Source: Candidatus Omnitrophota bacterium
Lineage (GTDB): Bacteria; Omnitrophota; Gorgyraeia; Gygaellales; Profunditerraquicolaceae
Direction of reading: 5' to 3'
Length of the DNA stretch: 64,000 nucleotides
Assembly: GCA_041650835.1 (NCBI GenBank)
Contig: JBAZKL010000003.1
Coordinates: 35,682 to 99,681, forward strand
Part shown: positions 13,529 through 46,547 of the stretch, in pieces
How the letters are laid out: each line of letters starts with the position of its first letter
Numbering within the stretch: the first letter of the stretch is position 1
Position numbers and translations under genes: made by a program
Notes under the pieces: model-generated
Told to the model about the DNA's origin: nothing
Seen by the model: the letters and a program-made list of their open reading frames with translations, nothing else
Databases searched by the model: none

Positions 13529-13695
13529 TCTTGCGCCTTAAAAGGGCCTATGCCCAAAGTTTAAGCAATAGAGAATAAAAAAAAACGCCCACACAAACGC
13601 TTTACTTCGCGCCTGTAATGAACGTCAATGTTCAATCTTTATTCTTTATTACTGTCGGCACAACAATGTGCCTAAATAATATACAATAGCTTCTT

Positions 13696-13731
13696 ATTAT
13701 ATACAAGTAAAAAAATAATAATCCTGGTAAC
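13696..13731 (-). promoter_or_regulatory. promoter for fis-gltBD: GTTACCAGG-N21-TATAAT (extended -10 TGTATATAAT) reading toward lower coordinates
   Basis: plus strand ATTATAtacaagtaaaaaaataataatCCTGGTAAC; same architecture at four other loci. Confidence 0.5.
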
Positions 13732-13828
13732 ACTTATTTTCATGAAACCAGTGACTTATAAAGAAGCGCCACCATACATCATTTATACCTGAACAACAAT
13801 AGTTATGTTTAAGAAAGGCTTTATTAAT

Positions 13829-14002
13829 GAACGGGTCCTGTCTTGGACTGTTTTCTCGCGGGGACGTTTGCCCCGCCCCGGCGTGGCGGGGCTGCACTCA
13901 GGTCGGCTGCGTCGCTCTGCCCGACTTCGTTTATCGAGGGGCATCCGTGCCCGCTCCTTGCCTTTATGCCCCACTCGTAAACAGTCCAAGCCACCCGTTC
14001 AC
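13829..14002. ncRNA. structured element E1 (~174 nt; long closing stem, internal hairpins), paralog of E2; candidate regulatory RNA/DNA element upstream of fis-gltBD promoter
   Basis: ends gaacgggtcctgtcttggactg ... cagtccaagccacccgttcac pair; compensatory changes against E2 in at least three stems. Confidence 0.5.
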
Positions 14003-14175
14003 TAACAGAATTACCAACCAAACACATAACACAGGTCTCATGACACAAACAACTGATTTATTAGATAACGAATCTGGCGGTTTTTCGAGCGCCCTCCTTC
14101 TCCCTTTTATAGACTTGCAATATCTTTGGCGGACTTCGGAGGATAAATAATGTCGATTTTAAAATTTTAGTTAGC

Positions 14176-14342
14176 GGGTGCCGAGGCGCGATTTGAGCAG
14201 GACGTAAAGGCGACGAGCGGGCATGGTGTCCGAGCGCATAGCGCGAGGACGAGCGAGGAAGCCGATGCGAGCGAGCTTTTCCACGCCGGGGAAAAGCGAG
14301 CGTTCCTGCGAAAACGCGCCTCGGCAGGACCCGCGAAATTCC
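14176..14342. repeat. long-hairpin element F1 (14-bp terminal inverted repeat gggtGCCGAGGCgcg...cgcGCCTCGGCagg, GAGCG-rich interior), immediately 3' of GltB-like gene
   Basis: paralog at 18274-18432 with covarying terminal repeat. Confidence 0.5.
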
Positions 14343-14452: not shown

Positions 14453-16045
14453 TTATTTCCCGTCGATTATTTTTTCCGCTTCTTTACGGTAGGCATCCAT
14501 CACATACGGTATCCCTGAGATCTCCTCCGCTTCTTTGGTCAAGCTCATCAGGTCTTTGCGTGAGATGCTCTTGAGGCTGAAATTCCGCGAGCCAGCCATC
14601 AATTGCTGCAACCCTACCCTTAACCGCTGGCTGAAAGTATAAATTCCCACAGCTCCCAACGGGATATCTTTCATATCCTTACCGTATTTCTCCGCCAATT
14701 CTTCATAGCAGACGAAGATCTCTTCCGGCTTGGTACCGAATTCTGATACCGTCGGAGGCAAGGTGCCGTTCTTGATCCAATCGCCGACATTCTTACCGAC
14801 GAATCCGGGGATCATGAGCGCCCGGCCCATACACACAGCCTTGACATACGGAGACCCCATAGCGATCACTTTAAAGATATGATCCTCAAGGGCAAAACCA
14901 CCGGCGATAGCGATATCCGGGATCCGCATTTTCTTCTTGGACAATCTGTCGCAGAATTCCTGCGTCAACGCCTGCAGATAGAATGTGGGAATACCCCATT
15001 CCTGCATCATTCTCCAGGGGCTCATACCGGTGCCGCCGGGAGCGCCGTCAATGGTCAAAAGGTCGATCTTTGCCATTGAGGAGAACTTTAACGCCTGCGC
15101 TAACTCCACCATAGAATAGGCGCCGGTCTTAAGCGTTATCCTCTTAAATCCGAGGTCTCTTAATCGTTTTATCTCTTTCATGAAGCCTTCTTCAGAGACA
15201 AAACCTAAACGGGAATGGCGTTCGAATTCTTTGATAGCGCCGGCTTTAAAAGCTTCCTGGGTAGCATGCACTGTCGGGTCCGGGGTAACGATATACCCGC
15301 GCTTCTTCAATTCAAGCGCCCGTTCAAGGGACTTGACCTTGATCTCACCGCCGATACACTTGGCGCCCTGGCCCCATTTCAGTTCAATGGTATCCAATTT
15401 ATGTTTCTTACGCACATATTCAGCAACGCCTAAACGGGTATCTTCGACGTTCATCTGAACTAAGATCTCGCCAAATCCGTCATGGAACCTTTTATAAAGC
15501 TCGATCCTTCTATCCATATCAGGAGCGCTGGTGATCTTGCCTTTACCGTCTAATTCCAGCTTCGGGTCAATACCGCAGACGTTCTCGCCGCAGACGATGG
15601 TGACACCCGAGATCGCGGCACCGATAGCAAAATGCTCCCAATTCTTACGGGCGATCTCCGTTGAACCGAGCGCGCCGGTAAAAATAGGCATTTTCATTCG
15701 AACCTTCATATCCCAGCCGTATTCGGTCTGAGTATCGACCGAAGGGAACGTAGCGGTATCCGGACCTCCCTCAACTCCCTTAGGCATACCGTTTGCGCCC
15801 TGGGCATACCCCTGGATATTCAAATGGGAATAATCAACCGGATAATCCTTGTCGCCTCCGGCGGTCATTTCACCGAACGGACCCGGATAGATCACTTCTC
15901 TTCCTCTAAATGATGATTTGAATACTTCGCAATTACCGCGGCAAGACTCAAGACAACGGGAACATAACCCTGAGCAAGGCACTACATTTTTAGAACGATT
16001 GAATGTACGGGTTGCGTCATTCCCCCCCGGAGTTCGTAAATTCAT
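14453..16045 (-). CDS. glutamate synthase domain-2-like FMN-dependent protein (archaeal-type GltB homolog)
   Basis: 530 aa; glutamate synthase FMN domain-like sequence (GAPGGTGMSPW..., IAGGF) preceded by Cys-rich N-terminus. Confidence 0.75.
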   Translation of the reverse strand: MNLRTPGGNDATRTFNRSKNVVPCSGLCSRCLESCRGNCEVFKSSFRGREVIYPGPFGEMTAGGDKDYPVDYSHLNIQGYAQGANGMPKGVEGGPDTATFPSVDTQTEYGWDMKVRMKMPIFTGALGSTEIARKNWEHFAIGAAISGVTIVCGENVCGIDPKLELDGKGKITSAPDMDRRIELYKRFHDGFGEILVQMNVEDTRLGVAEYVRKKHKLDTIELKWGQGAKCIGGEIKVKSLERALELKKRGYIVTPDPTVHATQEAFKAGAIKEFERHSRLGFVSEEGFMKEIKRLRDLGFKRITLKTGAYSMVELAQALKFSSMAKIDLLTIDGAPGGTGMSPWRMMQEWGIPTFYLQALTQEFCDRLSKKKMRIPDIAIAGGFALEDHIFKVIAMGSPYVKAVCMGRALMIPGFVGKNVGDWIKNGTLPPTVSEFGTKPEEIFVCYEELAEKYGKDMKDIPLGAVGIYTFSQRLRVGLQQLMAGSRNFSLKSISRKDLMSLTKEAEEISGIPYVMDAYRKEAEKIIDGK

Positions 16046-16125
16046 AATCCCCCCTTTTTTGTTGAAGAAAGCCTACCTGCTTAATAATTATGCACATTAT
16101 GCTTATCTTTTGGGCACCATTGCTC

Positions 16126-16243
16126 AAAAAAAAAGACGACCTTCTCACGAGAGAATGGACGCCATTGTCCACTGCAAATCATGTAAATTGTATCTTATCA
16201 TAAAAGGTCGTTTTGTCAACTATTGGATTAATTGGGTAACTGG
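16126..16243 (-). promoter_or_regulatory. promoter (TTGACA-N17-TAAGAT with upstream GGTAAC-type motif) and leader with small hairpins followed by U9 run, for GltB-like gene
   Basis: minus strand GTTACCCAAttaatccaatagTTGACAaaacgaccttttatgaTAAGAT; downstream ggtcgtcttttttttt. Confidence 0.4.
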
Positions 16244-16332
16244 CGCGGAATAAATGACTTTCTTTCCTATAAAAATAGTAACCAAACACACGTAAGTCTA
16301 AGACAATGGTCTATGATCGCAGGAGATCGGGT

Positions 16333-16506
16333 GAACGGGTCCTGTCTTGGTTTGTTTTTCGCAGGGACGTTTGTCCTGCCCCAGCGTGGCAGGACTGCAC
16401 TCCCTTTCAGCCCCTCACTCTGCCCGATAATTTTTTAGAGGGGCAACCATGCCCGCTCGGGGCTTCCAGAGGCCCTGCTCAAAACTAAACCAAGCCACCC
16501 GTTCAC
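16333..16506. ncRNA. structured element E2 (paralog of E1), upstream of GltB-like gene promoter
   Basis: same 174-nt length and termini as E1; stems gcaggg/ccctgc, tcctgcc/ggcagga, cttggttt/aaaccaag covary with E1. Confidence 0.5.
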
Positions 16507-16568
16507 AATAAAAATGCTATCAAGACACATAATACAGATTACAGGACACAAGTATTCCATGGTAGATG

Positions 16569-18273: not shown

Positions 18274-18432
18274 GGCTGCCGAGGCATGTTTTGAGCGGCA
18301 CATAAGGAAACTTGAGCGGGCACGGCTTGCCGCATTCTCAAATAATTACCAAGAGCGAAAGTTTCCGCTGAGCGCAGATTTTTCACGCTGGGAAAAATCA
18401 AGCGATGCCGCGAAAAATATGCCTCGGCAGCC
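18274..18432. repeat. long-hairpin element F2 (ggctGCCGAGGCat...atGCCTCGGCagcc), immediately 3' of amidotransferase gene
   Basis: paralog of F1. Confidence 0.5.
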
Positions 18433-21418: not shown

Positions 21419-21466
21419 AAAAAAAAAGCGCCCACATTCGGCCTCTTACCCGGCCACAGTGAACGC
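21419..21466 (-). terminator. terminator-like hairpin plus U9 in the glnN 5' leader, ~27 nt upstream of the start codon (candidate attenuator)
   Basis: minus-strand RNA gcguucacugugGCCggguaagaGGCcgaaugugggcgc-UUUUUUUUU; stem needs G-U pairs so it only forms in the minus-strand transcript. Confidence 0.45.
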
Positions 21467-21534
21467 CCCTGTTCTTAGCTGTGACAATCTCATGTGCACT
21501 GCTATGTGCACATTTACTATACAATAAGATATCA

Positions 21535-21569
21535 TTATATACAAGTAAAAAATGCTTGCGCTTGGTAAC
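21535..21569 (-). promoter_or_regulatory. glnN promoter: GTTACCAAG-N21-TATAAT
   Basis: plus strand ATTATAtacaagtaaaaaatgcttgcgCTTGGTAAC. Confidence 0.5.
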
Positions 21570-28547: not shown

Positions 28548-28735
28548 GCACCCCGGCTTAAAGGAGTGCCGGGTATGCGCCTTCTGCGGCAACACCCCGG
28601 CTTAAAGGAGTGCCGGGTATGCGCCTTCTGCGGCAACACCCCGGCTTAAAAGGATGTGCCGGGTGTGTTGCTTTCTGCGTACACCCCGCGCTATTCTGTA
28701 TTGCGCGGGTGTGTTGCTTTCTGCAACAAAGGCGT
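28548..28735. repeat. tandem ~44-bp hairpin repeats (x3) plus REP-like unit in amt1 leader
   Basis: cccggcttaaaggagtgccgggtatgcgccttctgcggcaacac x3, then caccccgcgctattctgtattgcgcgggtg. Confidence 0.6.
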
Positions 28736-28822
28736 TTACACACAACTGTTACTATACAATCGTGCATAAACGCCTCTGTTTTGAAAACACAAGCACTGCA
28801 ATGTGCTATTTTATTCTTCTCT

Positions 28823-28855
28823 CTTTACAAGTAAGATAGCACATCTCCTGGTAAC
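28823..28855 (-). promoter_or_regulatory. amt1 promoter region with CCTGGTAAC motif (weaker -10)
   Basis: plus strand TCTTTAcaagtaagatagcacatctCCTGGTAAC. Confidence 0.35.
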
Positions 28856-30521: not shown

Positions 30522-30764
30522 CTTTATCCTCCTTATTCATTCACACTCATGGGCCTTACCCATTTATTCAAATTACAAACCTCAAACCCGACGCACCCTT
30601 CTCATCGCTGAAAGAGGCATACTCTGTTTATTATTCCTTATGAAAACCCGCCCGTCATGCTGCTTGCCTGTGTCATTTCAACAGCCTAAACAACACACTT
30701 GAATACCCAGTTGTGCAAAAGAGCACAACAAAACCTTACTCCTCCTTTCGTAAAAAACCCTCTT

Positions 30765-30941
30765 TTAAAGCCCTAATTTTTCTTTCACTAATTTCGCGTA
30801 AAGTTTATTGATGCGCTCCGTCTTAAGCCAGCGCTCCAGAGTCGATATCTGCACATCCATCATCCTTGAAAGGTCAAAAAGAGTATATCCATGCTCGACC
30901 TTATAACTCCTCAATTTTCCGATCAGCTCTTTGTCCAGCAT
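30765..30941 (-). CDS. small HTH protein (58 aa) immediately after third P-II gene (start 3 nt after its stop)
   Basis: own translation MLDKELIGKLRSYKVEHGYTLFDLSRMMDVQISTLERWLKTERINKLYAKLVKEKLGL; below ORF-track size cutoff; coordinates approximate. Confidence 0.35.
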   Translation of the reverse strand: MLDKELIGKLRSYKVEHGYTLFDLSRMMDVQISTLERWLKTERINKLYAKLVKEKLGL

Positions 30942-33734: not shown

Positions 33735-33790
33735 GCTTACACCCGGCGCAGATTGGTATTGCGCCGGTGTGCCGCTTGCTGCGGCAAATA
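33735..33790. repeat. REP-like hairpin unit
   Basis: ctgcttacacccggcgcagattggtattgcgccggtgtgccgcttgctgcggc. Confidence 0.45.
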
Positions 33791-33878
33791 AAAAAGCGTT
33801 CTTTTTCAAGAACGCCCTCGATCTATCTCTATTGCTACTTTGCGAATTGCGACACTTCAACGTGTTTGTAACTTCTTA

Positions 33879-33913
33879 TACTTATACAAGTGTGAAAACC
33901 TTGTTCCTGGTAA
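33879..33913 (-). promoter_or_regulatory. promoter for porin-amt3-PII operon: GTTACCAGG-N21-TATAAG
   Basis: plus strand CTTATAcaagtgtgaaaaccttgttCCTGGTAAC. Confidence 0.45.
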
Positions 33914-33918
33914 CCTCT

Positions 33919-34482
33919 TTAAATCAAATCAATGTATTTCCTGCATTTTTCTCTGACCTTCGCCATACGTTTGATGACCATCACATGCGAGATCCCCAGC
34001 TTCAGGCCGATCTCGCGGGTAGTTAAACCATCCGCATAATAACCGAACATTTCTTTCTCAATAAGGCTGAAGCCGTTATTGCGTATGGTTTCCACTAAAA
34101 GTTTATCGTGCAAATTATCGATATACTCCTTACGATTATCGTTATGATCGGCGATCATGTCCTCCCAGCATATCCCCGACTCCGCGTCGGACGAAAGCGC
34201 TTCAAGGCTTACCAGGCAGCGCCGCGGAGCGGCCTTCCTGATATAATTCTTCAAATAAAAGTAGCACCCCTGTAAAATGTAACTATCCGTCTTATCGGCG
34301 AGCTTCCCCGCGCGAAAATCAGCCAGGAGATGGATCATTGCTTCCTGGAACAGGTCCTCACTGCTTAAAAAACACGAACTCCCCTTTAAACGGTAGGTGA
34401 TCCGTTTTAACACGGGAGTGATCCTTTTTATGACCGTATCAAAATCTGTTTTTTCCATAATTCCACCTTGCTGAAGCATCAT
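33919..34482 (-). CDS. sigma-70 family RNA polymerase sigma factor (ECF-like)
   Basis: region 2 and region 4 HTH (GLTTREIGLKLGISHVMV). Confidence 0.65.
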   Translation of the reverse strand: MMLQQGGIMEKTDFDTVIKRITPVLKRITYRLKGSSCFLSSEDLFQEAMIHLLADFRAGKLADKTDSYILQGCYFYLKNYIRKAAPRRCLVSLEALSSDAESGICWEDMIADHNDNRKEYIDNLHDKLLVETIRNNGFSLIEKEMFGYYADGLTTREIGLKLGISHVMVIKRMAKVREKCRKYIDLI

Positions 34483-36213
34483 CTATCCGCGGTAGCGGTT
34501 AGTGATCGGCATACGCCGGTCCCTGCCGAAGGCCTTTGGGGTTATTTTTATGCCCGGCGGCGACTGGCGCCGCTTATATTCGCTCTTATCGACCATTTGT
34601 AATACCTTCGATACCATAGCGCTATCGAAGCCTAAAGCAACGATCGCGTTAATGTCCTTATTTTCTTCGACATACGCCTTTAAAACCGGGTCTAACTGTT
34701 CATACGGGGCAAGCGTATCCCGGTCCAACTGGTTAGGCCGCAATTCAGCCGTCGGCTCTTTGGTCAAAATACGCTGCGGGATGACGAACGAAATAGAATT
34801 ACGGTAATACGATAATTGATAAACCAGCCCTTTCGGGACATCTTTGATCACGGCAAAACCTCCGGCCATATCGCCGTAGAGCGTGGCATAGCCGGTGCTC
34901 ATTTCCGATTTATTTCCCGTAGTCAATACCAACCAGGAGAATTTATTGGAAAGCGCCATTAAACAAGTGCCCCTGATACGCGCCTGCAGATTTTCTTCAG
35001 TGACATTCTTCTCCAAACCGGCAAAATAGGGCTCAAAGATCAAAAGATACATCTTATAGATCTGTTCGATAGAAATACTCATAAAGGCGATCCCTAAATT
35101 ATCCGCCAATTGCCGGGCATCAGTTTCCGATTCATTGGATGAATAACGGGTCGGCATAAAAACACCCGTTACATTCGAACGGCCTAACGCATCAACCGCC
35201 AATGCCGCCACAAGCGCCGAATCAACCCCTCCGCTTAAACCGATCACCGTTTTCTGAAAGCCGTTTTTCACCACATAATCACGCAGCCCCAGCGTCAATG
35301 CCTTATAAACTTCAGCAGCCGGCTCCAGGGGACTGGCCAGGCTCAGCGGTATTTGCGCCCGCTCAGGGTCACGGGAAGAAAGAGCCGGCAAAGTCAAAAC
35401 AACGGCTTTCTTCTTTGCGTAGGCCTTGACTCGGGAAAGGGCCACATCGGCTATCAAAAGCTCTTCCTCGAATGCCGCTGCCCGCGCGATCACAGCGCCC
35501 TGCCTGTCAACAACCATGCTCTGGCCGTCAAAGACCAATTCATCCTGCCCTCCCACTAAATTGGTATAGGCGATATATACGCGGTTTTTCCTTGCCTGTG
35601 CGCAAATTATCCCTTCCCTCTCTTTTATTTTCCCCGCATGATAGGGAGAAGCGTTAATATTAAGAATGAGCTGGGCGCCTGCCAGGTTTTGAGCTTTGAG
35701 CGGCCCCTCGGCATGCCAGATATCCTCACAAATATTCACTCCGAACACAAAAGGCAACGGCAGCTTCCCGGAAGTCCGGGCTTCCCGGCGCGTTATCGCA
35801 TAAAGATCAGGGGTGTCGCCGGAAGAAAAATACCGCTTTTCATCGAAAACACCGTAATTCGGCAGCAGCATTTTGTGGTATATATGACGGACCTTTTTCT
35901 TATATATGACGGCTGCCGCGTTATAGAGGGCGTTACCCTTGCGGTCCACGAACCCGGCGATCGTAATGATACCAGGGTCAACGCTGCGGGCAAACGCGCG
36001 CAACGCGCAAAGATTATCAGCGATAAACTTCGGTTTAAGCAAAAGGTCCTCGGGAGGATACCCGGTTAATGATAATTCCGGAAAGCAAATAATATCAACA
36101 TTTTTTTGCGCTGCCCGGCTCAAGTATTCGCTCATCTTTTGGCTGTTACCCTCCAGATCGCCGACCGTAGCGTTTATTTGCCCTAATGCTATACGAAAGC
36201 TGTTTTCTCTCAT
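34483..36213 (-). CDS. nadE: glutamine-dependent NAD+ synthetase (nitrilase domain plus NadE domain)
   Basis: MRENSFRIALGQ... CN-hydrolase, GLSGGVDSALVA P-loop; the 22 upstream codons in the track ORF are read from the leader module. Confidence 0.85.
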   Translation of the reverse strand: MRENSFRIALGQINATVGDLEGNSQKMSEYLSRAAQKNVDIICFPELSLTGYPPEDLLLKPKFIADNLCALRAFARSVDPGIITIAGFVDRKGNALYNAAAVIYKKKVRHIYHKMLLPNYGVFDEKRYFSSGDTPDLYAITRREARTSGKLPLPFVFGVNICEDIWHAEGPLKAQNLAGAQLILNINASPYHAGKIKEREGIICAQARKNRVYIAYTNLVGGQDELVFDGQSMVVDRQGAVIARAAAFEEELLIADVALSRVKAYAKKKAVVLTLPALSSRDPERAQIPLSLASPLEPAAEVYKALTLGLRDYVVKNGFQKTVIGLSGGVDSALVAALAVDALGRSNVTGVFMPTRYSSNESETDARQLADNLGIAFMSISIEQIYKMYLLIFEPYFAGLEKNVTEENLQARIRGTCLMALSNKFSWLVLTTGNKSEMSTGYATLYGDMAGGFAVIKDVPKGLVYQLSYYRNSISFVIPQRILTKEPTAELRPNQLDRDTLAPYEQLDPVLKAYVEENKDINAIVALGFDSAMVSKVLQMVDKSEYKRRQSPPGIKITPKAFGRDRRMPITNRYRG

Positions 36214-36224
36214 AAGAATAAAAA

Positions 36225-36425
36225 AAGCGCCCTTCATCCACCACCGGGATAAAGGACGCCTTAGTCCATGCTTTACCACCCGAACATACAGGATTGTTCG
36301 GTGTACCCTCGCGGGTAAAAAAAAAGTCTTTTTGCGTTCTTTGCAAAAAGACTTCTGCGTCTTAATTCTACTTCTCTGTACTTATTATAAATATACCACA
36401 GATTCGGCTTTTGTCAAGCTTTTCC
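36225..36425 (-). promoter_or_regulatory. promoter-leader module copy 1 (TTGACA-N16-TATATT; hairpin+U9; covarying hairpin; hairpin+U7 ending ~8 nt before nadE ATG)
   Basis: ~75-80% identical to 43050-43260. Confidence 0.55.
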
Positions 36426-42813: not shown

Positions 42814-43050
42814 TCAAGGCTTCTTGTCCACCAACAGCACAAATTTAACAAGCCTGATTATTTCTATTAAACTGGCTAAAAAACCCGTGCCGATACAAAT
42901 ATAATACACCCACGCACCTGCGTTAAATTGCTTTACGAAATATTCACCTGCCAGATATCCGGCCACCGGGCCAGAGGCCAACAAGAGCGGGATAAAAGCG
43001 GCAACGCCGGCGATCTTAATTAATTTATAGGGTCCTTCTTTTTCAGCCAT
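42814..43050 (-). CDS. small two-TM membrane protein upstream of atpB (AtpZ/AtpI-like)
   Basis: 78 aa, position as first gene of atp operon. Confidence 0.45.
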   Translation of the reverse strand: MAEKEGPYKLIKIAGVAAFIPLLLASGPVAGYLAGEYFVKQFNAGAWVYYICIGTGFLASLIEIIRLVKFVLLVDKKP

Positions 43051-43260
43051 AAAGAAAAAAGGCGCCCTTCATCCAATCATTGGAGGAAAAAACGCCTTAG
43101 TTTTTGTTTCAACACCCAAACATATCTGATTGTTTGGTGGCCTCGTGGGCAAAAAAAAATCTTTTTGCGAAGCTGCAAAAAGACTTCTATGTCTTACCTG
43201 TCAACTCTGTACAAGACTATTATAATAAACAAGCTGTTTTTGTCAAGCCTTTATTGCTTA
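43050..43260 (-). promoter_or_regulatory. promoter-leader module copy 2 (TTGACA-N16-TATAAT; hairpin+U9; covarying hairpin; hairpin+U6 ~4 nt before ATG) driving atp operon
   Basis: near-consensus sigma70 hexamers. Confidence 0.55.
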
Positions 43261-43998
43261 ATCTCTTTTACCTCTGATATCTTTTGCCAAAATGATCGCC
43301 TCAGCGATCTCTCGCATGCCCTTACGCATATCCATACTTTGCTTCTGGATCAGCCGGAATGCTTCCGCGGAAGAAATATTGGCTTCCTGGGACAAAATAT
43401 CCTTCGCGCGTTCAACGAGCTTCCTGGTAGTCAAAGCTTCTTCTGCGGTGCGGGCGCGAACATCCAGTTCAGCATTCTCGATCGCCACGGCAGCCTGATT
43501 AGCAAGCGCGGTCAGAATATCCACTTCGTGTTTGGTAAAGACGTGCTTTTTGGAAGTATAACAGTTCAAGACCCCGATAACCCTCCCCTTGACTGTTAAC
43601 GGCACGCTCGCCAGGGAGCAAAGGCCTTCTTTAACCGCGATATCGCCATTAAGGTACCGGGGGTCTTCTTTGACATCCAGGACAAACACCGCTTTATTCT
43701 CCTGTGCGGCTATACCGGCGATGCCTTCTCCCAGCTTAACATTCGGCTTCTTATTATAGGCCTCCGATATAGACTGCGTTGCCCGCACTACTAATTCTTT
43801 TTTTTCCGGGTCAAGCAGCATAAGCGAAGAAATTTTAGAATTCATGATCTCGGCGGTTACCTGCACGATCAAACGAAGCAACTCATCCATATATAAGCCG
43901 CTGGTGAGCAGATTGGCCACCTTTGAAAGCGCCTCGATCTGTTTAACATATACCTGGTAATTCTCTTTCTTTTTTACAATTTTAACCGCTTTAGCCAT
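43258..43998 (-). CDS. GAF-ANTAR RNA-binding antitermination regulator
   Basis: GAF domain then C-terminal ANTAR (ERAKDILSQEANISSAEAFRLIQKQSMDMRKGMREIAEAII); ATG overlaps stop of the upstream aminotransferase (ATGGCTAA). Confidence 0.75.
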   Translation of the reverse strand: MAKAVKIVKKKENYQVYVKQIEALSKVANLLTSGLYMDELLRLIVQVTAEIMNSKISSLMLLDPEKKELVVRATQSISEAYNKKPNVKLGEGIAGIAAQENKAVFVLDVKEDPRYLNGDIAVKEGLCSLASVPLTVKGRVIGVLNCYTSKKHVFTKHEVDILTALANQAAVAIENAELDVRARTAEEALTTRKLVERAKDILSQEANISSAEAFRLIQKQSMDMRKGMREIAEAIILAKDIRGKRD

Positions 43999-45157
43999 GT
44001 TTGGTTTCCCTTCGCAAGAATAACGAGATCCTGTTAACCGCTTCTTTGAGATTATCCAGGCTTGAAGCATAAGACATCCTGACGTATCCTTCGCCCGATT
44101 TTCCGAAAGCGTTACCGGGGACAACCGCGACTTTCTGGTTTTTTAACAATGCTTGCGCGAAATCAATTGAACTCATGCCTGTTTTCTTAATAGATGCAAA
44201 GGCGTAAAAGGCCCCCTGAGGCATCATGCACGGCAGGCCTAATTGATTGAGCGCATCCACAATAAATTCCCTTCTCCTGCGGTACTCCCGCTTCATCTCC
44301 TCTACCGGCTTCCTGCCGCTTTGCAAAGCCTCATACGCCGCCATCTGGGAAGTGATCGGCACGCACATGATCGTATATTGATGTATTTTGGTCATCGCGG
44401 CGATGATCTCTTTCGGGCCGCAGGCAAAGCCGACCCTCCAGCCGGTCATCGCGTAGCTTTTCGAGAATCCGTCGAGATAAACCGTATTATCTTTCGCGCG
44501 GGGGAGGCTCGCAAAAGACGTATGCTCGAAATCATAGGTCAAATCGCCGTATATTTCATCCGAAATGCACAAAACATTATGCTTTAAGAGGACCTTATTG
44601 ATCTCTGAGAGCTCTTTATGCGTATAAGAAACACCGGTCGGGTTTGCGGGATAATTAAAAATGATCGCTTTAGTCTTACGGTCGATATTCTTCTCTAAAT
44701 CAGCCGGCGTTAATTTAAACTTTTGTTTTTCAGTATCGATATAAACCGGGATGCCTCCTGCCAACTCGGTCATCGGCCCGTAAGAGACATAACTGGGGAT
44801 CGGGACCAAAACCTTATCCCCGGGGTTAGTGATCGCCCGCAAGATCAGGTCCATTCCTTCGCTGACTCCCACCGTGATCAAGATCTCTTCATCAGGGCAA
44901 TAGTCCAGATGAAACTTATTTTTTAAATACCGGCTGATACCCAAACGCAGCTTATATAACCCTTTGTTAGAGGTATACGATGTAAACCCCTGTTCAAGAG
45001 AATAAATACCCGCCTCCCGTATCGGCCAGGGAGTGACAAAATCAGGCTCACCCACTCCCAGGGAGATCACATCTTTCATCCCCAGAACCAGGTCAAAAAA
45101 AACCCGTATTCCCGAAGGCTGCATTTCCTTGACTATGTGAGCGATCCTATCGTTCAT
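43991..45157 (-). CDS. class I/II pyridoxal-phosphate aminotransferase (aspartate/alanine aminotransferase-like)
   Basis: 388 aa, SFSKSYAMTGWRVG lysine region. Confidence 0.8.
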   Translation of the reverse strand: MNDRIAHIVKEMQPSGIRVFFDLVLGMKDVISLGVGEPDFVTPWPIREAGIYSLEQGFTSYTSNKGLYKLRLGISRYLKNKFHLDYCPDEEILITVGVSEGMDLILRAITNPGDKVLVPIPSYVSYGPMTELAGGIPVYIDTEKQKFKLTPADLEKNIDRKTKAIIFNYPANPTGVSYTHKELSEINKVLLKHNVLCISDEIYGDLTYDFEHTSFASLPRAKDNTVYLDGFSKSYAMTGWRVGFACGPKEIIAAMTKIHQYTIMCVPITSQMAAYEALQSGRKPVEEMKREYRRRREFIVDALNQLGLPCMMPQGAFYAFASIKKTGMSSIDFAQALLKNQKVAVVPGNAFGKSGEGYVRMSYASSLDNLKEAVNRISLFLRRETKHG

Positions 45158-45182: not shown

Positions 45183-45668
45183 TCAATACGATATTGCTAT
45201 CCGCGCATGATCTTCTTTATGTTTTAGAATTACCCCGTCTTCTTTGTATTTCTTCATTAAAAAGTGGGTCGATGTGCCTTTCACATTTACCATCGGCGCC
45301 AACTTCTCCGCCACAAAATTAGAGACGGTATGCATATCTTTGCCCTCAACGATCAACAGCAGGTCATACGTACCTGAGACCAAATAACAGCTGGAGACTT
45401 CAGGGAAGGAATATATCCGTTCGGCGATCTTATCAAAACCCACGTCCTTCTGAGGAGTAATATCCACCTCGATCAAAGCGCGGACCGTTGTATCGGGGTC
45501 CCTGACCAATTCCTTATTAATGATAGTCTTATACCTCAGGATAATGCCTTCTTTTTCATACTTTAAGACCGCCTTCTTAACGTCAGCCGGTTTCTTCCTA
45601 AGCATGGTAGCGATCTCATTGACGCTTAAACGCGCGTCTTTTTCTAATATTTCCAATATCTCATCCAT
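45183..45668 (-). CDS. Lrp/AsnC family transcriptional regulator
   Basis: N-terminal HTH LSVNEIATMLR and C-terminal RAM domain. Confidence 0.8.
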   Translation of the reverse strand: MDEILEILEKDARLSVNEIATMLRKKPADVKKAVLKYEKEGIILRYKTIINKELVRDPDTTVRALIEVDITPQKDVGFDKIAERIYSFPEVSSCYLVSGTYDLLLIVEGKDMHTVSNFVAEKLAPMVNVKGTSTHFLMKKYKEDGVILKHKEDHARIAISY

Positions 45669-45669
45669 A

Positions 45670-46401
45670 CTATATCCCTCCGTTTCGTCGATAACAGATC
45701 TTCGGCCCCTGCCTCTTATGCTCAGAGCGAGCGATCATCTTTTTGATCTTGTCGACTTTCTTCTTTGCAACAACCGGGACCTGTTTCTTTTCCAAACGCT
45801 CTAATATCTCATCCAATTCAGAATAAGTGACCCCCATCTCGTCTTCATCGGTCTGGCCGGGCCAGAGGCCAGCAGTCGGAGGTTTGGTAATCACCCGTTC
45901 GGGGATATCTAACGCGCGCGCAAGTACGCGGACATCTTTTTTCAATAGATCACCAAGGGGAAGGATATCGGTAGCTCCATCGCCATGTTTGGTAAAATAC
46001 CCGATCATAAGCTCACTTTTATTACCCGTGCCGCAGACCAGATAATTCAAGGTGTTGGCATAATAATAAAAAACAACCATACGCAGCCGGGATTTCAAAT
46101 TTGCCAAAGCCAGCTTATTCCCCCTGGGCAAGGACTTCAGGAACATATCGTATAAACCGGACAAATCGACGACTTTCGTCTTTATACCCAGCTGCCGGGC
46201 GACCAGGAGCGCATCCGCCCTGTCTTCTTTCTGGCTATGGCAGGGTAAGACCAAAGCTAAAAGCCGCTTTGCCCCAACAGCTTGTTTGGCTAAAGCGGCA
46301 ATTACACTGGAATCGATCCCGCCGCTTAACCCCATCACAATGCCTTTTACCCGTGCAAGACGTACTTGTTTCTTGATCCAGGCAACAATTCTCTCTTTCA
46401 T
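45670..46401 (-). CDS. nadE: NH3-dependent NAD+ synthetase
   Basis: GLSGGIDSSV P-loop, 243 aa. Confidence 0.85.
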   Translation of the reverse strand: MKERIVAWIKKQVRLARVKGIVMGLSGGIDSSVIAALAKQAVGAKRLLALVLPCHSQKEDRADALLVARQLGIKTKVVDLSGLYDMFLKSLPRGNKLALANLKSRLRMVVFYYYANTLNYLVCGTGNKSELMIGYFTKHGDGATDILPLGDLLKKDVRVLARALDIPERVITKPPTAGLWPGQTDEDEMGVTYSELDEILERLEKKQVPVVAKKKVDKIKKMIARSEHKRQGPKICYRRNGGI

Positions 46402-46547
46402 ACGGTAATTGGATAGAAAAATTATGCGAAAGGAAAGCGCCTTACCAGCTTTATGCCTTATTCTGAGAAAAGCACATCTTTTGGAGTTTTCTAAATATTA
46501 ATCATAGCATAATTTCAAAGAGGGTCAAGGAGATAATCGCCTGCTTG

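Follow-up and report, generated by a model that had tools for sequence, protein, structure and literature searches.

A GAF-ANTAR regulator and candidate ANTAR-type attenuators in an ammonium-assimilation gene cluster of an Omnitrophota bacterium

In a 64,000-nt stretch of a Candidatus Omnitrophota genome (GenBank assembly GCA_041650835.1, contig JBAZKL010000003.1, positions 35,682 to 99,681 of the forward strand; hereafter the window), the gene for a one-component GAF-ANTAR protein is found together with a cluster of ammonium-assimilation genes, several of which are preceded by long leaders bearing two hexaloop hairpins and an intrinsic terminator that overlaps the second of them. Judging from sequence, synteny and predicted RNA folding, this ligand-sensing protein probably controls an ammonium-assimilation regulon by ANTAR-type transcription attenuation, and the regulon would include the atp operon in the subclade to which the window belongs. 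ANTAR substrates are known to consist of two hexaloop hairpins (P1 and P2) whose loops open with A and have G as their fourth base (A1 and G4), P2 overlapping the terminator (Ramesh et al., 2012, PMC3369931). The regulator and the leaders are located within 30 kb in the window and within 10 kb in relatives.

Regulator and leader RNAs

The regulator and the leaders considered here are the following, where the box is a promoter-like motif presented further below:

43258-43998, minus strand: GAF-ANTAR one-component regulator, 246 aa (Pfam, sequence matches in the PDB, AlphaFold2 model)
43048-43246, minus strand: atp operon leader, type A, aligning with 28 orthologous leaders
36280-36417, minus strand: NadE598/sigma leader, second leader of type A, upstream of orf598 and orf187, a near-copy of the atp leader
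33786-33914, minus strand: omp-amt1 leader, type B, degenerate; box GTTACCAGG-N14-ACTTGTA at 33914-33885
28725-28855, minus strand: amt3 leader; box at 28855-28826
21419-21569, minus strand: glnN leader, type C; box at 21569-21540
13577-13731, minus strand: fis-gltBD leader, type C; box at 13731-13702
16112-16226, minus strand: leader of the gene for a GltB-like 530-aa protein, of ambiguous assignment; TTGACA-17-TAAGAT

In the regulator, Pfam recognizes a GAF_2 domain at residues 37-174 (E 4.9e-25) and an ANTAR domain at residues 185-236 (PF03861; model positions 3-54 of 54, E 1.5e-16, 60.3 bits for a cutoff of 27.3), i.e. a full-length match above the curated threshold that places the protein in the ANTAR family by its domain. 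The identical protein is entered at NCBI as 'GAF and ANTAR domain-containing protein [Candidatus Omnitrophota bacterium]', from a metagenome-assembled genome on a 435-kb contig, and the GAF-ANTAR assignment given to this gene in the preliminary description, made from the sequence alone, is thus borne out. Compared with solved structures by phmmer, the C-terminal part hits the ANTAR domains of Rv1626 (4.9e-8), EutV (1.8e-5) and NasR (4.5e-4), and the N-terminal part hits many GAF domains. The AlphaFold2 model, of moderate confidence (mean predicted local distance difference test score of 67) and used for domain layout only, displays a GAF alpha/beta domain, a long helix (156-205) and two further helices (210-221 and 229-243); as modelled, this build of sensor, long helix and C-terminal ANTAR (185-243) appears to fit the modular plan of ANTAR regulators.

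The genes considered here all lie on the minus strand, and their leaders are read as RNA. Two hexaloop hairpins are present in the glnN, fis-gltBD, amt3 and NadE598/sigma leaders, and in all of them but amt3 a terminator followed by U9 overlaps P2. In the glnN leader, P1 augugcac-AUAGCA-gugcacau (21513-21492) is separated by a 17-nt linker from P2 gaac-AGGGGC-guuc (21474-21461), which is overlapped by the terminator 5' arm GGGGCGUUCAC, and the U9 stands at 21427-21419. The fis-gltBD leader comprises P1 ggcac-AUUGUU-gugcc (13672-13657), a 22-nt linker, P2 ugaac-AUUGAC-guuca (13634-13619) and a terminator overlapping P2 with U9 at 13585-13577; in both of these leaders, the P2 3' arm GUUCA opens the 5' arm of a long stem ending in GUGGGCG and U9. 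The NadE598/sigma leader begins at a promoter with TTGACA, 16 nt and TATATT, and carries P1 uac-AGAGAA-gua (36380-36369), 5 nt, P2 aagac-GCAGAA-gucuu (36363-36348) and a terminator with U9 at 36325-36317. By their sequence, the putative ANTAR targets of these three leaders are clear and of the canonical dual hexaloop type. In the amt3 leader, P1 agcac-AUUGCA-gugcu (28807-28792) and P2 aaac-AGAGGC-guuu (28781-28768) are 10 nt apart.

The atp leader possesses a near-consensus promoter (TTGACA 43246-43241, 16 nt, TATAAT 43224-43219), a P1 cuugu(a)c-AGAGUU-gacagg (43215-43197) that needs one bulged A, and a P2 aagac-AUAGAA-gucuu (43195-43180) that overlaps a terminator with U9 (to 43151); a CACC..GGGUG hairpin comes after this first terminator, as does a second hairpin aaaac-UAAGGC-guuuu (43104-43089), overlapped by a second terminator with U6 (to 43055), just after which lies the ATG of the atpZ-like gene at 43050. 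The omp-amt1 leader contains the hairpins acac-GUUGAA-gugu and gauc-GAGGGC-guuc, the latter with one mismatch, and the terminator gcguucuu-GAAA-aagaacgc with U6. The leader of the GltB-like 530-aa gene bears the hairpin aguggac-AAUGGC-guccauu (16173-16154) and a U9 at 16134-16126, with a possible second hairpin gagc-AAUGGU-gccc beyond the U-run; its fold is not better than that of shuffles (z-score -0.69) and two conformers are isoenergetic. Upstream of nadE (46402-46547), neither a hexaloop hairpin of the R1/G4 kind on the gene strand nor a long U-run was found and this leader was dropped from the set; P1 and P2 were also searched for in the amt2 leader (30522-30770) and none was found.

The preliminary description had placed U-runs in the glnN, fis-gltBD, GltB-like and nadE/atpZ leaders and an AUAGCA hexaloop hairpin in that of glnN; T9 is indeed found at the three positions given above and at 43159-43151 in the atp leader, and the hairpin is present as atgtgcac-AUAGCA-gtgcacat. 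Of its nadE/atpZ attenuator the atp half stands, with P2, terminator and U9, and the nadE half falls; in the GltB-like leader, the U9 and one hexaloop hairpin hold and the assignment of a dual hairpin is ambiguous. Its caveat that the dual signature is not clear in every leader was justified, the GltB-like leader being ambiguous, that of omp-amt1 degenerate and that of nadE devoid of it. The link of the leaders to ANTAR, which it had called inferential, is still so but much stronger than first noted. P2 had been overlooked in the glnN and gltB leaders, and elements are borne as well by the leaders of amt3 and omp-amt1 and by another one at 36430-36280.

To compare such arrangements with chance, the window was searched for hexaloop hairpins of the R1/G4 kind closed by a C-G pair, two of them being spaced by 2-25 nt with T6 or more behind them. 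Three dual hexaloops followed by T6+ occur on the gene strand, where 200 dinucleotide-shuffled sequences have 0.01 on average and 1 at most, together with six single P2-like hairpins followed by T6+ (0.76 +/- 0.85 in shuffles), five of which are in leaders; the opposite strand of the window gives no dual and one single hairpin. In unconstrained folding, the minimum-free-energy structure of every clear leader consists of P1 plus the terminator, the P2 3' arm being used in the U9-followed stem in the glnN, gltB, atp and 36.3-kb leaders. Forcing P2 costs 7.5 kcal/mol in glnN, 4.9 in gltB and 5.9 in the 36.3-kb leader; therefore, termination is the default fold and read-through needs P2 to be stabilised by something. 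The simpler view of the U-run hairpins as mere terminators of the upstream genes was rejected because conserved promoters lie between the upstream stop codons and the hairpins.

Taken as a mechanism, promoters upstream of the long leaders would start the glnN, fis-gltBD, NadE598/sigma and atp transcripts, and similarly amt3 and probably omp-amt1. By default, the nascent leader would fold into the intrinsic terminator with its U6-U9 and transcription would stop. Activation of the GAF domain would lead the protein, as a dimer, to bind the hexaloop of P1 and then that of P2; as the P2 3' arm is also the start of the terminator 5' arm, a folded P2 would block the terminator and RNA polymerase would read through. 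The analysis shows the domains of the protein, the anatomy of the RNAs with their default terminator fold, the conservation of these features and their close association in genomes. We infer that this protein binds the leader RNAs, in which direction it responds and to which ligand, the pairing of protein and RNA being suggested by phylum-wide synteny and co-occurrence.

Conservation in relatives and alternative explanations

The comparison covered 80 species-level loci around regulator homologs, nearly all labelled Omnitrophota, plus long contigs for two homologs; genes were named from the annotation of two relatives' loci and, in the other loci, by BLAST against the window proteins. The triad AsnC-aminotransferase-GAF-ANTAR is almost universal in the 80 loci and, in most of them, is directly followed by orf187, an outer-membrane protein (OMP), Amt, PII, Amt, PII, GlnN, a Fis-like protein, GltB and GltD; in the window and five other loci, the atp operon is inserted directly after the regulator. 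Three types of leaders recur:

Type A, before orf187 or atp: TTGACA-17-TATACT, uac-AGCGUU-gua, 2-4 nt, aagac-AnnGAA-gucuu, terminator
Type B, before OMP/Amt: acac-AuuGAa-gugu, 8 nt, aac-AnnGGC-guu; the omp-amt1 leaders of relatives are canonical
Type C, before Fis-GltB and GlnN: gcac-RnnGnA-gugc, 15-22 nt, gaac-AnAGAC-guuc

In type-A leaders, a second hairpin GGAC-uAAGGC-GUCC with its own terminator lies downstream. Over 1.12 Mb, a relaxed scan for dual hairpins followed by a T-run yields 82 hits on the gene strand vs 10 on the other. A P2-like hairpin with a T-run stands upstream of 62 of 102 nitrogen-cluster or atp genes, with 25/25 for orf187, 9/10 for the Fis-like gene, 6/7 for OMP, 4/4 for atpZ and 8/18 for GlnN. 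Within these loci, it is rare before the remaining genes (7 of 140) and is found essentially never upstream of the regulator's own operon. Besides, the exact type-C P1-P2 pattern has at least 121 matches in metagenome contigs; among the matches listed, 96 are followed by T5+ and 72 are preceded by the promoter-like box, which the pattern did not include, and the next genes are Fis-like/GltB (48), GlnN (24), type I glutamine synthetase (15) and glutamate dehydrogenase (1). Several of the 121 listed are chance matches in GC-rich unrelated contigs, the 72 with the box being the reliable ones. The predicted regulon would accordingly reach beyond the genes of the window, to type I glutamine synthetase and glutamate dehydrogenase (metagenome loci L084-L203, e.g. 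L114 and L144).

The same synteny bears on the possibility that the leaders are genuine ANTAR attenuators served by another ANTAR protein encoded elsewhere, e.g. a NasT- or EutV-like response regulator, the GAF-ANTAR protein then having another target or just the adjacent type-A leader. The window is 64 kb of the 435-kb contig and of a larger genome, a second GAF-ANTAR copy exists in some relatives, and three leader types with linkers of 2-5, 8 and 15-22 nt could mean several binding proteins. Yet the GAF-ANTAR gene holds the only ANTAR domain within the window, its synteny with the leader-bearing cluster extends over about 80 species and its conservation is unusually high for a regulator, all of the 120 homologs listed being at least 79% identical to it; furthermore, no response-regulator-ANTAR gene is called in the loci of the two annotated relatives, those of the others being labelled by BLAST as said. 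We regard such a second protein as unlikely to be the one that serves these leaders.

At the RNA level, alignment of 29 type-A leaders with MAFFT shows G4 and the P2 stem to be invariant, P1 and P2 to be 95.5% paired, and the terminator to be 97.7% paired with four compensatory pairs and a score reached by none of 500 shuffles. For 15 type-C leaders, unguided RNAalifold on the MAFFT alignment returns exactly P1 and P2, with three compensatory pairs in the outer part of P1. G4 is invariant in both sets and position 1 is A or G. Since type-A stems are invariant, the support for P1 and P2 comes from the paralogous leader types and from the outer P1 pairs of type C. Among hexaloop hairpins before T-runs on the gene strand of the relatives, A1/G4 is the sole clearly enriched loop class (17.4% vs 6.8% elsewhere, 2.5-fold), an enrichment absent on the opposite strand. 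The published consensus of ANTAR substrates is SYAC-AAHGRH-GUDB for P1 and RRGY-AAHGDV-GCYY for P2, with linkers of 4-18 nt among hits, and G at loop position 1 is also on record, e.g. GAUGAA (PMC3369931). The P1 and P2 hairpins of the window, which are closed by C-G and combine G4 with a first loop base that is A or G, fit this consensus, and their P1 stems GCAC..GUGC, ACAC..GUGU and UAC..GUA match those of eut leaders.

Several results weigh against this interpretation and are gathered here. No covariation is seen in P1 and P2 of the 29 type-A leaders, their stems being invariant in sequence. Position 1 of the loop is G and not A in many copies, the amt3 P2 is overlapped by a 25-bp hairpin without a U-run, and the glnN leaders of relatives mostly have P2 only. 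Regarding linkers, those that work for EutV measure 5-12 nt, a linker of 3 or 14 nt or a 20-nt extension abolishing function (PMC3369931; PMC8934654); the linkers found here are of 2-5 nt in type A, 8 nt in type B, 10 nt in amt3 and 15-22 nt in type C, so that types A and C are at or beyond that range. A scan of the leaders with an ANTAR covariance model, the check proposed in the preliminary description, gave an equivocal outcome. Rebuilt on the basis of 30 sequences taken from the alignment published as Figure S2 (36 positions, eut-biased P2 stems, shortened calibration), the model returned, with filters off, 21 hits in the window, five leaders among them and none convincing: the best is the leader of the GltB-like 530-aa gene (E 0.014), in an odd alignment, the amt3 (E 0.83), gltB, omp-amt1 and atp leaders are marginal at E 0.8-9, and the glnN leader is not among the 21. 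Apart from these points, an Rfam scan of the whole window gave nothing at gathering thresholds and chance-level hits at E<=10, with no ANTAR-target match.

These marginal scores of the eut-based model could also be expected if the hairpins and U-runs were ordinary attenuators or terminators under a riboswitch, another RNA-binding protein or NusA/NusG-dependent pausing, with incidental hexaloops; plain conservation could yield the latter, the P1 and P2 stems being invariant within each leader type, and the same leaders share conserved hairpins of another kind, CACC..GGGUG. Such an explanation has to contend with the recurrence of one layout on different P1 stems (GCAC/GUGC, ACAC/GUGU, UAC/GUA) and different P2 stems (GAAC/GUUC, AAGAC/GUCUU, AAC/GUU, GGAC/GUCC), a six-base loop with invariant G4 and a purine at position 1 being kept across all of these variants. 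In addition, it runs counter to the clear enrichment of A1/G4 alone before T-runs, to the agreement of closing C-G pairs and stem consensus with published ANTAR substrates and to the absence of any Rfam riboswitch match in the leaders, and it appears quite improbable. Finally, an action of the GAF-ANTAR protein mainly on translation, by occluding or exposing ribosome-binding sites, for which ANTAR targets in actinobacteria provide a precedent (PMC8164766) and which would suit the second atp-leader hairpin/terminator ending 5 nt before the atpZ-like ATG and the hairpin abutting the orf598 start codon, is highly improbable given that P2 lies, in the clear cases, over a stable stem with U6-U9 located 10-100 nt upstream of the Shine-Dalgarno sequence, which is a termination architecture.

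Ligand and known ANTAR systems

In NCBIfam, the GAF domain is best matched by the N-terminal NifA GAF (2e-13) and the PtsP/EI-Ntr GAF (1.3e-12), and the GAF domains of PtsP, Lcd1 and NifA are near the top of the fold matches. The GAF domains of NifA and PtsP sense 2-oxoglutarate or glutamine, and our guess for the ligand is a nitrogen-status metabolite such as these. It stays a guess, and counts as a further weak point of the scheme, because cAMP-binding and other GAF domains match equally well. Assigning the ligand from fold or sequence neighbours was dropped, cAMP-binding and other GAF domains ranking beside those of NifA and PtsP.

ANTAR regulons are predominantly nitrogen-related (PMC3369931), and a close term of comparison is the eut system under EutV in Enterococcus faecalis (Ramesh et al., 2012, PMC3369931; Walshaw et al., 2022, PMC8934654). 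Both have dual A1/G4 hexaloops with P2 exclusive with the terminator, the P1 stem (G/A)CAC..GUG(C/U) is common to the eutS and eutP leaders and those of the window, and several transcription units depend on one regulator, as proposed here. However, EutV is a phosphorylated response regulator and the window protein a GAF sensor without receiver domain, the eut P2 stem is GAGC with linkers of 5-12 nt vs GAAC or AAGAC with 2-5 or 15-22 nt and often G at loop position 1 here, and the targets serve ethanolamine use in one case, and would be ammonium-assimilation genes and ATP synthase in the other. NasR, acting on nasF in Klebsiella oxytoca (PMC7496416), is likewise a one-component protein with a ligand domain fused to ANTAR, without kinase; it controls nitrogen assimilation, as the window protein probably does, and its nasF P2 GGAU-AAAGGC-GUCC is very similar to the hairpins of the form GGAC-(U/A)A(A/U)GGC-GUCC reported here. 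The differences are its nitrate-binding NIT sensor and its single nas operon, as opposed to a GAF sensor and at least five candidate target leaders.

The same targets, i.e. PII, Amt, glutamine synthetase and glutamate synthase, belong to the ANTAR nitrogen regulons predicted in Desulfotomaculum acetoxidans and Pelobacter carbinolicus (Ramesh et al., 2012), where the regulators are of the response-regulator type and the hosts are Firmicutes and Deltaproteobacteria, unlike the GAF sensor and the other phylum considered here; unlike these regulons too, a putative alternative sigma-factor gene and, in one subclade, the atp operon are placed behind the attenuators. AmiR/AmiC of Pseudomonas aeruginosa and PdtaR (Rv1626) of Mycobacterium tuberculosis share the ANTAR output domain, Rv1626 being the best solved match (E 4.9e-8), but AmiR and PdtaR have a pseudo-receiver or receiver N-terminus under the control of a partner or a kinase and no GAF domain. 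The GnfK/GnfR system of Geobacter is also an ANTAR nitrogen regulon.

The mechanism is thus a known one and the nitrogen theme was to be expected, because ANTAR regulons at genes for PII, Amt, glutamine synthetase and glutamate synthase were already predicted in other phyla in 2012. No GAF-ANTAR protein had been characterised as of 2012 (Ramesh et al., PMC3369931), and the search of later literature for GAF-ANTAR function or an Omnitrophota ANTAR system found no relevant study. What is new here is the phylum, a sensor class without characterised member and an apparent coupling to an alternative sigma factor and the ATP synthase. The locus gives the GAF-ANTAR class concrete and conserved candidate RNA targets together with a ligand hypothesis (2-oxoglutarate or glutamine), and it offers a first view of how ammonium assimilation may be regulated in an uncultivated and widespread phylum, by antitermination and an alternative sigma factor.

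Promoter-like box, neighbouring genes and further repeats

The box GTTACCARG-N14-ACTTGTA precedes the glnN, fis-gltBD, amt3 and omp-amt1 leaders, with four perfect matches vs 0.02 expected, and type-A leaders have a standard sigma-70 promoter in its place. In relatives, it occurs in 61 copies in 33 loci and always on the gene strand, and the sites checked are without exception located past orf187 in the nitrogen cluster. The latter gene is as follows:

33919-34482, minus strand: orf187, putative divergent sigma-70-family (extracytoplasmic function (ECF)-like) sigma factor (TIGR02937 and family profile)

Its match to TIGR02937 spans positions 3-164 of 165 (E 6.8e-11) and falls just below the cutoff (42.1 vs 42.9 bits), the Pfam matches to sigma regions r2 and r4 are both below threshold, and a profile of 19 orthologs matches sigma factors of the PDB, among others FliA (4.9e-8) and SigH (3.2e-5). 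In relatives, orf187 is the first gene after the type-A attenuator and is immediately upstream of the first box. On the strength of position and co-occurrence, we tentatively suggest that orf187 could recognise the box, the antiterminator gating the sigma gene and then each sigma-dependent transcript. A two-tier nitrogen circuit of a kind not yet described, in which GAF-ANTAR would sense a nitrogen-status metabolite and gate orf187 by way of the type-A attenuator, and orf187 would drive the box promoters of amt, glnN/glnA, gltBD and gdh, is likewise conceivable and rather doubtful. If true, it would amount to a coherent feed-forward AND gate, most box promoters being followed by another ANTAR attenuator, and one subclade would also have its F1Fo ATP synthase operon behind the same attenuator.

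In the glnN (21540-21516) and gltB (13700-13676) leaders, minus strand, a second TTGTATA(G/T)TA element is observed about 20 nt past the box ACTTGTATATAAT; relatives are without this insertion and their P1 begins 6-8 nt after CTTGTA.

Around the regulator and in the nitrogen cluster, the neighbouring genes are:

43991-45157, minus strand: class I/II (AspC/PatA-like) aminotransferase (Pfam Aminotran_1_2, E 4.3e-69)
45183-45668, minus strand: AsnC/Lrp-family regulator, first gene of the AsnC-aminotransferase-GAF-ANTAR triad (Pfam)
45670-46401, minus strand: NH3-type NadE, 243 aa, in the regulator operon (Pfam)
34483-36279, minus strand: orf598, CN-hydrolase-NadE (glutamine-dependent NAD synthetase), 598 aa, behind the second type-A attenuator

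The aminotransferase also matches NCBIfam PRK07682 (E 4.9e-164), under its cutoff. The regulator ATG (43998-43996) sits inside the end of the aminotransferase gene, in the sequence ATGGCTAA, and the two open reading frames overlap by 8 nt; this start/stop overlap agrees with the coupling of the two genes claimed at the outset. Their adjacency or overlap is also kept in relatives, where the AsnC-aminotransferase pair precedes the regulator in most of the loci that extend far enough. The window has two NAD synthetase genes, for the 243-aa NH3-type NadE and the 598-aa glutamine-dependent form, and in 18 relatives the 598-aa form directly follows the regulator, typically at about 3 nt or less. The second GAF-ANTAR copy mentioned above is found in L050, in L077 and, as a tandem copy, in one locus; three loci have it immediately before a gene homologous to that of the GltB-like 530-aa protein (window 14453-16045), the leader of which bears, in the window, a GGAC-AAUGGC-GUCC hairpin.

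Besides the hexaloops, a hairpin family ACACC(C)GG...CC(G)GGGUGU is present on the minus strand at 28723-28549 (four in tandem), 33771-33739, 43140-43112 and 36305-36280, as well as in the leaders of L009, L031, L060 and L072, with loops that are C/U-rich, e.g. ACUCCUUUAA (anti-Shine-Dalgarno-like), or of the AAUACC type. These hairpins lie downstream of ANTAR-type attenuators in nitrogen-gene leaders, one of them abutting the orf598 start codon; the family is without Rfam match and may be a second regulatory RNA element.

Between the nitrogen genes, a repeat of about 185 nt with a very stable fold (-88 to -92 kcal/mol), closed by GUGAACGGGU/ACCCGUUCAC, occurs in both orientations, with strong copies at 13825-14010 and 16325-16514 (minus strand), weaker ones at 14165-14333 and 18283-18428 (plus strand) and another in L045 (3992-4138). 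The two strong copies differ by compensatory changes and the repeat has no Rfam family match; it could be a miniature inverted-repeat transposable element (MITE)-like repeat or an undescribed structured RNA. Lastly, near-identical palindromic hairpins (G/U)CCUGCCU-ACCGGC-AGGUAGG(C/A) stand after unrelated genes at 6104-6083 and 17699-17676 (minus strand), L047 bears the similar sequence GCCTGCCTGCCGGCAGGCAGG, and they are probably a repeated terminator or a repetitive extragenic palindromic (REP)-like element.

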